A stretch of DNA of 64,000 nucleotides, taken from assembly GCF_057098645.1 (NCBI RefSeq), contig NZ_CM169472.1; one strand, written 5' to 3'. Numbering within the stretch: the stretch's first letter is position 1; every line of letters begins with the position of its first letter. The notes under the pieces are model-generated. The model saw only the letters and a program-made list of their open reading frames with translations, was not told the DNA's origin and ran no database searches. The translations under genes were made by a program, and so were the position numbers. This document shows positions 24,853-25,619 of the stretch, one piece after another.

Positions 24853-25619
24853 TTAATTGAGCTCCTGTACCCCACCACCGGAGACGGTGAGAATTTGTCC
24901 GCTTACCCAGCTGGCTGCAGGCGAGCAAAGGAACAACGCTGCGTTAGCAATATCTTGCGGTTGGCCCAGACGTCTGATCGGCGTGTGCTGTAACATTTTT
25001 TGTTCAATTTCTGGTGTAATAACGGATTTCAGGGCATCGGTTAATATTGCCCCCGGCGCAATGCCATTTACCCGAATATTTTTTTCACCCAGGTCAAACG
25101 CCATATTTCTGACCAGATGACTGGCCGCAGCTTTAGATGATGCATAGGAAGTCATGTTTATATTTTTATTTTCTGCCGCCATAGAAGTGATGGTCAGAAT
25201 AACGCCACCGCCATTTTTTCCATTTCTGGCGCAACAAGTTGTGACAGATGGAAAAAAGAAAACACATTCAGTTCATAAGCACGGCGAAAATCTGCCATTG
25301 GCATATCAAACGGTTTAGGACCACCGCCACCGGCGTTGTTAACCAGGATATCAACTTTACCCAGCTTACTGACGGCAAAGTCTGCCAGTGCAGAGAGTTC
25401 CTGTTCGGAAGTAATATCACAACGCCAGGCAAATGCCTGACCACCCAGTTGTTGAATTTCATCTACAACATGGTTAGCTGCGTCGGCATTAATATCACTG
25501 ACCACTACAGATGCGCCAGCTGTCGCGAATGTAATGGCGATTTCTTTACCAATACCTGCACCCGCACCTGTGATGATGGCGCATTTTCCGTCGAGTCTCA
25601 GGTTGTCAGAATTAAACAC
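24853..25619 (-). pseudogene. hdhA: 7-alpha-hydroxysteroid dehydrogenase (SDR family) with a -1 frameshift in an A-homopolymer
   Basis: N-terminal 141-aa ORF (25194-25619) ends ...APEMEKMAVALF*; C-terminal 109-aa ORF (24853-25182) is in another frame. The frame switches at the A6 run (T6 on the plus strand, 25214-25219); one extra A would restore ...EMEKNGGGVILTITSMAAENK. Confidence 0.75.

Follow-up and report, generated by a model that had tools for sequence, protein, structure and literature searches.

The window analysed here is a stretch of 64,000 nucleotides from RefSeq assembly GCF_057098645.1 (contig NZ_CM169472.1), and the subject of this study is the hdhA gene for 7-alpha-hydroxysteroid dehydrogenase that it carries on the minus strand. 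The gene lies between malI (25731-26759, minus strand) and uidR (24034-24624, minus strand), so that the usual Escherichia coli malI-hdhA-uidR synteny is kept. It measures 767 bp, compared with 768 bp in intact alleles, and a run of six A residues on its coding strand (A6; 25219-25214, T6 on the plus strand) stands where intact alleles have seven (A7). The features of the locus, including its two open reading frames (ORFs), are as follows.

24853..25619, minus strand: hdhA pseudogene, 7-alpha-hydroxysteroid dehydrogenase; NF004773 matches on both halves, 99.9% identity to the intact O145:H28 hdhA with one gap
25214..25219, minus strand: site of the 1-bp deletion, the A6 run; counts of an A7 probe against an A6 probe
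25194..25619, minus strand: N-terminal ORF of 141 amino acids (aa), GTG start, ending ...APEMEKMAVALF before the stop; ORF list and NF004773
24853..25182, minus strand: C-terminal ORF of 109 aa in another frame, beginning MAAENKNINMTSY...; ORF list and NF004773
25617..25630, minus strand: intact translation start, with the Shine-Dalgarno sequence AGGAGGT (25630-25624), an overlapping AUGUG and the GUG at 25619-25617; sequence and PMC9841429
25079..25085, minus strand: second A7 tract of hdhA, in Glu-Lys-Asn codons (GAA AAA AAT), intact in the window; homopolymer list and slip products in other strains

On the coding strand the A6 run stands in the context ...GCGCCAGAAATGGAAAAAATGGCGGTGGCGTTATTCTGACC..., and a longer minus-strand read across it is ...CAACTTGTTGCGCCAGAAATGGAAAAAATGGCGGTGGCGTTATTCTGACC...; the ancestral A7 spans the codons Glu135-Lys136-Asn137 (GAA AAA AAT). 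A sequence-only reading of the window had described hdhA as split at this run into ORFs of 141 and 109 aa, and every detail of that description agrees with the ORF list and with the NCBIfam profile NF004773 (255 positions). The 141-aa ORF contains native residues 1-136, which comprise the Rossmann half that binds nicotinamide adenine dinucleotide (NAD; TGAGAGIG), followed by the out-of-frame residues MAVALF and a TGA stop at 25194-25196. The 109-aa ORF begins at native Met147. Residues 1-136 of the first ORF align with profile positions 1-136 and the second ORF with positions 147-255, and because these matches fall on complementary parts of the profile, the two ORFs are the halves of one gene. 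As the same reading had proposed, adding one A yields ...EMEKNGGGVILTITSMAAENK, the same sequence as WP_000483371.1. The repaired protein matches the crystallised enzyme (PDB 1AHH) at all 255 residues save two allelic ones, W64 and V83.

To establish the ancestral state of the run we turned to the complete E. coli genomes in RefSeq, 5416 of 5426 of which contain hdhA. The 26 best matches to the window allele, complete genomes that are nearly all labelled O145 or O145:H28, share 99.9% identity with it and carry an intact gene of 768 bp with A7. The comparison with a reference hdhA that had been suggested as a check gave the same picture, since alignment with O145:H28 strain RM9872 revealed a single-base difference within the gene, A7 there against A6 in the window. 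It had also been considered that the reference itself might have six A residues, which is not so: a 71-nt A7 probe matches 3823 complete E. coli genomes exactly. By contrast, exact matches to a 70-nt A6 probe are limited to 14 of 5412 complete genomes, and a probe with eight A residues (A8) has no exact match among the complete genomes. On these counts A7 is the reference state, and A6 is rare and derived. The lesion thus has the features of a slipped-strand event, namely a 1-bp deletion in a mononucleotide run that has its intact length in close relatives (A7 in 26 of 26 O145:H28-type genomes).

The genomic background was defined by comparison with O145:H28 strains RM12761 and RM13516, to which positions 36001-61000 of the window are about 100% identical. 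Over its whole length the window aligns with RM12761 in two blocks (594-18749 and 19945-64000; 62.2 kb in total), with 13 single-nucleotide polymorphisms (SNPs), one 1.2-kb insertion of the insertion sequence IS5 and a single indel, the hdhA deletion. Judging by these alignments, the window is a part of the chromosome of an O145:H28-lineage E. coli. A Shigella origin had been suspected from the pseudogenes together with an insertion sequence and from a best match of only 98.7% over positions 15000-35000; it was rejected in view of the nearly complete identity of 36001-61000 to O145:H28, and the 98.7% value arose because IS5 reduced the coverage of the true relatives.

The deletion is shared by strains that are distinct from the window strain. 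The exact 141-aa product was found on 589 public contigs in 891 indexed blocks (NCBI, ENA and Logan). Draft genome GCA_029357705.1 matches the window without a difference across the 6.4 kb surrounding hdhA, but a comparison over 20 kb sets it apart as another strain, as documented below.

hdhA A6: window, yes; GCA_029357705.1, yes
uidA G-to-A SNP at window position 23079: window, yes; GCA_029357705.1, yes
uidB W98* nonsense mutation (TGG to TGA) at 21542: window, yes; GCA_029357705.1, no
IS5 in uidC: window, yes; GCA_029357705.1, no
SNP at 33154: window, yes; GCA_029357705.1, no
uidB 1-bp G deletion at window equivalent 21680: window, no; GCA_029357705.1, yes
SNP at 35013: window, no; GCA_029357705.1, yes

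The shared G-to-A change at 23079 lies in uidA (21832-23643, minus strand) and results in the substitution UidA V189M. We used the exact UidA V189M protein as a handle on the sub-lineage and recovered 31 indexed blocks; the 24 contigs that were read from them group into three neighbourhood types. Representatives of all three types (Logan ERR12121972, GCA_025225035.1 and GCA_029357705.1, each from a different assembly) carry A6. None of the three has the uidB nonsense mutation or the uidC::IS5 insertion of the window, and they are therefore different strains from that of the window. Since uidB and uidC are intact in most UidA V189M contigs, the hdhA deletion is older than the other lesions of the window strain. 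The presence of A6 in independent assemblies of the sub-lineage, together with its position as the sole indel in 62.2 kb, points to a heritable change rather than an assembly error. This distribution indicates that the A6 deletion is real and inherited, and that it marks an O145:H28 sub-lineage with UidA V189M.

Outside this sub-lineage the same deletion was encountered on very different backgrounds. Compared over 5.8 kb centred on the tract, the carriers of A6 make up eight haplotype groups, with 47-124 SNPs between one group and another.

Group 1: window and GCA_029357705.1
Group 2: TC24, AREA_C483, 1218KP and a MEGAHIT metagenome contig
Group 3: ERZ28585728
Group 4: GCA_022975695.1
Group 5: NCTC86, B-2207 and ET210
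Group 6: SMBL
Group 7: JL05
Group 8: three O111:H8 strains

Distances of 47-124 SNPs between backgrounds imply that the changes from A7 to A6 were independent events, and judging by these haplotypes the same slip has arisen independently in many E. coli lineages, on at least eight backgrounds. The O111 serogroup is instructive in this respect, because a 2-kb stretch of the three A6 O111:H8 strains recurs in at least 37 further complete O111 genomes with A7 as the one difference, so that A6 is derived within that serogroup, just as it is in the window relative to the O145:H28 genomes. For NCTC86, Escherich's original isolate, A6 is found in several independent deposits. In every RefSeq record that was opened (TC24, AREA_C483, NCTC86, B-2207, SMBL, JL05, ET210, O111:H8 05-3004 and 1218KP) the Prokaryotic Genome Annotation Pipeline (PGAP) had labelled hdhA as 'frameshifted'. 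The lesion is thus already known in public databases through the RefSeq annotation of other strains, and here it is found on the O145:H28 allele. A literature search found no paper describing an hdhA frameshift or pseudogene lesion; one pan-genome paper does no more than list hdhA as a near-core gene that 1 of 44 genomes lacks. As a separate observation, NCTC86 and B-2207 carry a frameshifted, partial malI beside the frameshifted hdhA.

For each of the two common protein alleles, the products of -1 and +1 slips at both A7 tracts were also predicted, and public contigs were then searched for the exact sequences. The full-length W64/V83 and C64/I83 alleles were each found on at least 1000 contigs, and the slip products were distributed as follows.

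Tract 1, -1: W64/V83 allele, 589 contigs; C64/I83 allele, 430 contigs
Tract 1, +1: W64/V83 allele, 0 contigs; C64/I83 allele, 25 contigs
Tract 2, -1: W64/V83 allele, 28 contigs; C64/I83 allele, 115 contigs
Tract 2, +1: W64/V83 allele, 0 contigs; C64/I83 allele, 22 contigs

This pattern shows that both hdhA A7 tracts are indel hotspots at which deletions predominate. Slips at two tracts, most of them deletions, fit the rule that indel rates in E. coli grow exponentially with homopolymer length (PMC8510543). An A6 probe for tract 2, used as a control within the same gene, had 0 exact matches, but this is a weak result, since the flanks are polymorphic (SNPs at positions 522 and 552 of the gene) and no more than 3662 records were matched. 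At a control A7 tract in malI (26741-26747), A6 was found in 2 of 5412 genomes. That tract lies at the N-terminus of malI on the minus strand, and the two strains with A6 are KSC9 and ATCC 43889.

Taken together, hdhA in the window is an ordinary slipped-strand pseudogene at a mutational hotspot. We place a probability of roughly 90% on the explanation that the A7 run slipped in an ancestor of the sub-lineage, that A6 has been inherited since, and that the gene, a dispensable one with a mutational hotspot, now specifies a truncated HdhA. In this scheme, in which we infer replication slippage as the mechanism, slipped-strand mispairing in the A7 run would have removed one A:T pair in the ancestor of the O145:H28 sub-lineage, and A6 has since been passed down to its members, among them the window strain. 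Translation initiated at GUG would then produce native residues 1-136 and the six out-of-frame residues MAVALF before stopping at TGA. The product would retain the NAD-binding half, while the catalytic residues and the substrate-binding C-terminal half, which are encoded further downstream, would be lost. No 7-alpha-hydroxysteroid dehydrogenase activity would be expected, and cholate and chenodeoxycholate would not be oxidised to their 7-oxo forms. Because the hotspot is generic and the gene dispensable, the same lesion recurs across E. coli. Several points weigh against this explanation. The A6 call of the window itself is supported through its relatives only, and some of the A6 calls in other complete genomes, for example in long-read-only assemblies, could be technical. 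The contig counts reflect sampling and clonal expansion rather than mutational events and include some technical errors, and the approximately 7-fold excess of tract 1 over tract 2 (1019 versus 143 contigs) is not accounted for by plain mutational equivalence of the two tracts.

The sequence-only reading had left two options, that the slipped-strand pseudogene is real or that the homopolymer was misread in sequencing, and it is the former that stands. The error option, under which the strain would really have A7 and an intact hdhA, draws on the facts that a one-base homopolymer deletion is a classic error of long-read, 454 or Ion Torrent data and that A6 is absent from all complete RefSeq O145:H28-type genomes. 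Besides the hdhA run, the window has 28 long homopolymers (A/T of at least 7, G/C of at least 6), one of them inside IS5, and the remaining 27 are all as in RM12761. Twenty-seven unchanged homopolymers and hdhA as the only indel in 62.2 kb are not the profile of an assembly prone to homopolymer errors. Moreover, the same A6 occurs in independent sub-lineage assemblies (a Logan assembly of a public run and NCBI drafts) that differ elsewhere from the window strain, and the exact truncated product is present on the 589 contigs mentioned above. With the A7 state of the reference added to this, a sequencing or assembly error is very improbable and can be regarded as effectively excluded. Even less credible is the idea of a phase-variable contingency locus that switches reversibly within populations between A7 (ON) and A6 (OFF). 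Repeated change at the same tract and the public products of both -1 and +1 slips would suit such a locus, but the tract is just 7 bases long, the three UidA V189M representatives all have A6 with no revertant among them, A8 is absent from complete genomes, and the A7 probe is exact in 3823 of them. A contingency locus would have a long repeat tract and frequent reversible switching within a clone, to which the short tract and the uniform A6 of the three sampled representatives do not conform.

An account in terms of selection would keep the slip as the route but propose that some niches favour the inactivation of hdhA, perhaps with the adjacent glucuronide genes decaying as well. The repeated fixation of A6 on 8 backgrounds speaks for it, as do the concentration of all 3 disruptive events in 62 kb (the hdhA deletion, uidB W98* and uidC::IS5) within hdhA-uidABC and the independent uidB frameshift in the sister strain. 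In addition, a stretch of about 6.5 kb holds 5 of the 15 differences from RM12761 against an expectation of about 1.6, an enrichment statistic that is post hoc, and 14 genomes have A6 at hdhA tract 1 compared to 2 at the malI control tract, although malI is perhaps more constrained than hdhA and hence a weak control. The gene is nonetheless kept in the great majority of strains, with A6 in just 14 of 5412 complete genomes, and uidB and uidC are intact in most members of the sub-lineage, so that we consider selected loss unlikely. The loss of function might, on the other hand, be incomplete if a -1 slip of the P-site tRNA-Lys on A-AAA-A, or stuttering of RNA polymerase on A6, gave some full-length HdhA. 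Shifting by -1 at Lys136 would give back the wild-type sequence, ...EMEK-N-GGG, and tRNA-Lys is known to be slippery on A runs, as in E. coli dnaX. Efficient transcriptional slippage in E. coli requires runs of about 9 or more, which counts against it at A6. The hdhA gene is well expressed, at 447 parts per million, and its Shine-Dalgarno sequence is strong (PMC9841429), so that enzyme could be measurable with as little as about 1% correction. The run nevertheless has no in-frame X XXY YYZ heptamer and no Shine-Dalgarno-like stimulator upstream, and a search for a 3' stimulatory RNA structure downstream of A6 revealed none, folding being no better than that of shuffled sequences (z -0.43). The A6 state is, furthermore, rare and derived instead of conserved, as the frameshifted state of a programmed frameshift or transcriptional-slippage gene would be, and leaky recoding therefore seems quite improbable. 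A broader conjecture would see the two Glu-Lys-Asn A7 tracts as evolutionary fuses that switch off bile-acid 7-alpha-dehydrogenation, with the loss being selected in some hosts or niches, possibly along with loss of glucuronide uptake through uidB and uidC, and with residual enzyme perhaps arising from -1 tRNA-Lys slippage on A6; we regard this as improbable.

Returning to the slipped-strand pseudogene, its consequence for the enzyme follows from the position of the break. The E. coli enzyme has the catalytic triad Ser146-Tyr159-Lys163, and mutating these residues severely lowers activity (PMC4785404). The positions of all three come after the break. Neither ORF encodes Ser146, and the other two residues, Tyr159 and Lys163, are confined to the 109-aa ORF, which is without the cofactor-binding half. 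No single chain therefore combines the triad with the NAD-binding Rossmann motif, the first chain leaving the native sequence after residue 136. Against NF004773 the scores are 263.3 bits for the first fragment (profile 1-136) and 239.1 bits for the second (147-255), both below the curated cut-off of 367 bits, and there is no full-length match. Given fragments below the cut-off and a repaired protein equal to WP_000483371.1, which is annotated as hdhA, the locus between malI and uidR is a pseudogene of hdhA rather than a functional member of the family. A purine-rich Shine-Dalgarno sequence was not found upstream of the 109-aa ORF (...CTGACCATCACTTCTATG), and this ORF is presumably not expressed. 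We infer an allele that would be enzyme-null for 7-alpha-hydroxysteroid dehydrogenase.

Compared to the known HdhA (NF004773; 1AHH, 1AHI and 1FMC; WP_000483371.1), the window copy occupies the same locus. Once repaired, it has the sequence of the O145:H28 protein and departs from the crystallised K-12-type HdhA at just two residues, W64 and V83. Both the start site and the Shine-Dalgarno sequence of the known gene are likewise intact in the window copy. Reporter assays have demonstrated that hdhA initiates at GUG and not at AUG, the reason for the use of GUG in the AUGUG start being that the AGGAGGU Shine-Dalgarno sequence has only a 2-nt spacer from AUG (PMC9841429). What distinguishes the window copy is the one missing A, which leaves a chain of residues 1-136 with 6 aberrant residues and catalytic residues unjoined to the cofactor half. 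The copies labelled 'frameshifted' by PGAP have the same lesion and the same 141-aa and 109-aa ORFs, whereas the allele of the window is of the O145:H28 type, the A6 form of which is in no complete RefSeq genome. From homopolymer-tract frameshift pseudogenes in general, as known from the mutation-accumulation work of Lee and Foster, there is no essential difference, since here too a 1-bp deletion affects a mononucleotide run at a recurrent site and a second run is affected; only the apparent excess of tract 1 over tract 2 stands apart.

For annotation this means that hdhA is a genuine pseudogene here and is not to be "corrected" as a sequencing error. In typing, A6 together with UidA V189M serves as a marker of an O145:H28 sub-lineage. 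Such strains, like NCTC86 and some O111:H8 strains, are predicted to make no 7-oxo bile acids, which bears on the share of E. coli in gut bile-acid transformation. In pan-genome studies, homopolymer slips at the two A7 tracts drop a near-core gene from "core genome" counts. The practical value of these findings is modest, and no concept is changed by them.

Several further observations concern the neighbourhood of hdhA. The glucuronide transporter gene uidB (20462-21835, minus strand) has been knocked out twice, separately, within one small sub-lineage: the nonsense mutation at 21542 is private to the window strain, and the sister strain GCA_029357705.1 has its own 1-bp G deletion. IS5 at 18750-19945, with a CTAA target duplication, splits the glucuronide porin gene uidC into 17958-18764 and 19899-20423 (minus strand); neither the O145:H28 strains RM12761 and RM9872 nor the sister strains have this insertion. 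An IS5 that is 99.9% identical occupies this CTAA site in the unrelated strain S1-KEN-03-A as well, oriented the same way but beside a different flanking SNP, which points to the uidC CTAA site as a probable IS5 insertion hotspot. At the beginning of the window, positions 1-593 do not align with RM12761; in O26 and O103 Shiga toxin-producing E. coli this sequence matches the end of an element beside tqsA that carries a tyrosine recombinase/integrase. An integrative element or prophage thus seems to sit in tqsA (ORF 616-1500) of the window strain and to be missing from RM12761. Finally, rsxC (34500-36818, plus strand) contains imperfect tandem repeats of about 96 bp at about 36146-36771, with copies that are about 89-92% identical, and RsxC lengths of 708, 740, 772 and 804 aa at the loci fetched from different lineages suggest that the repeat number varies between lineages.
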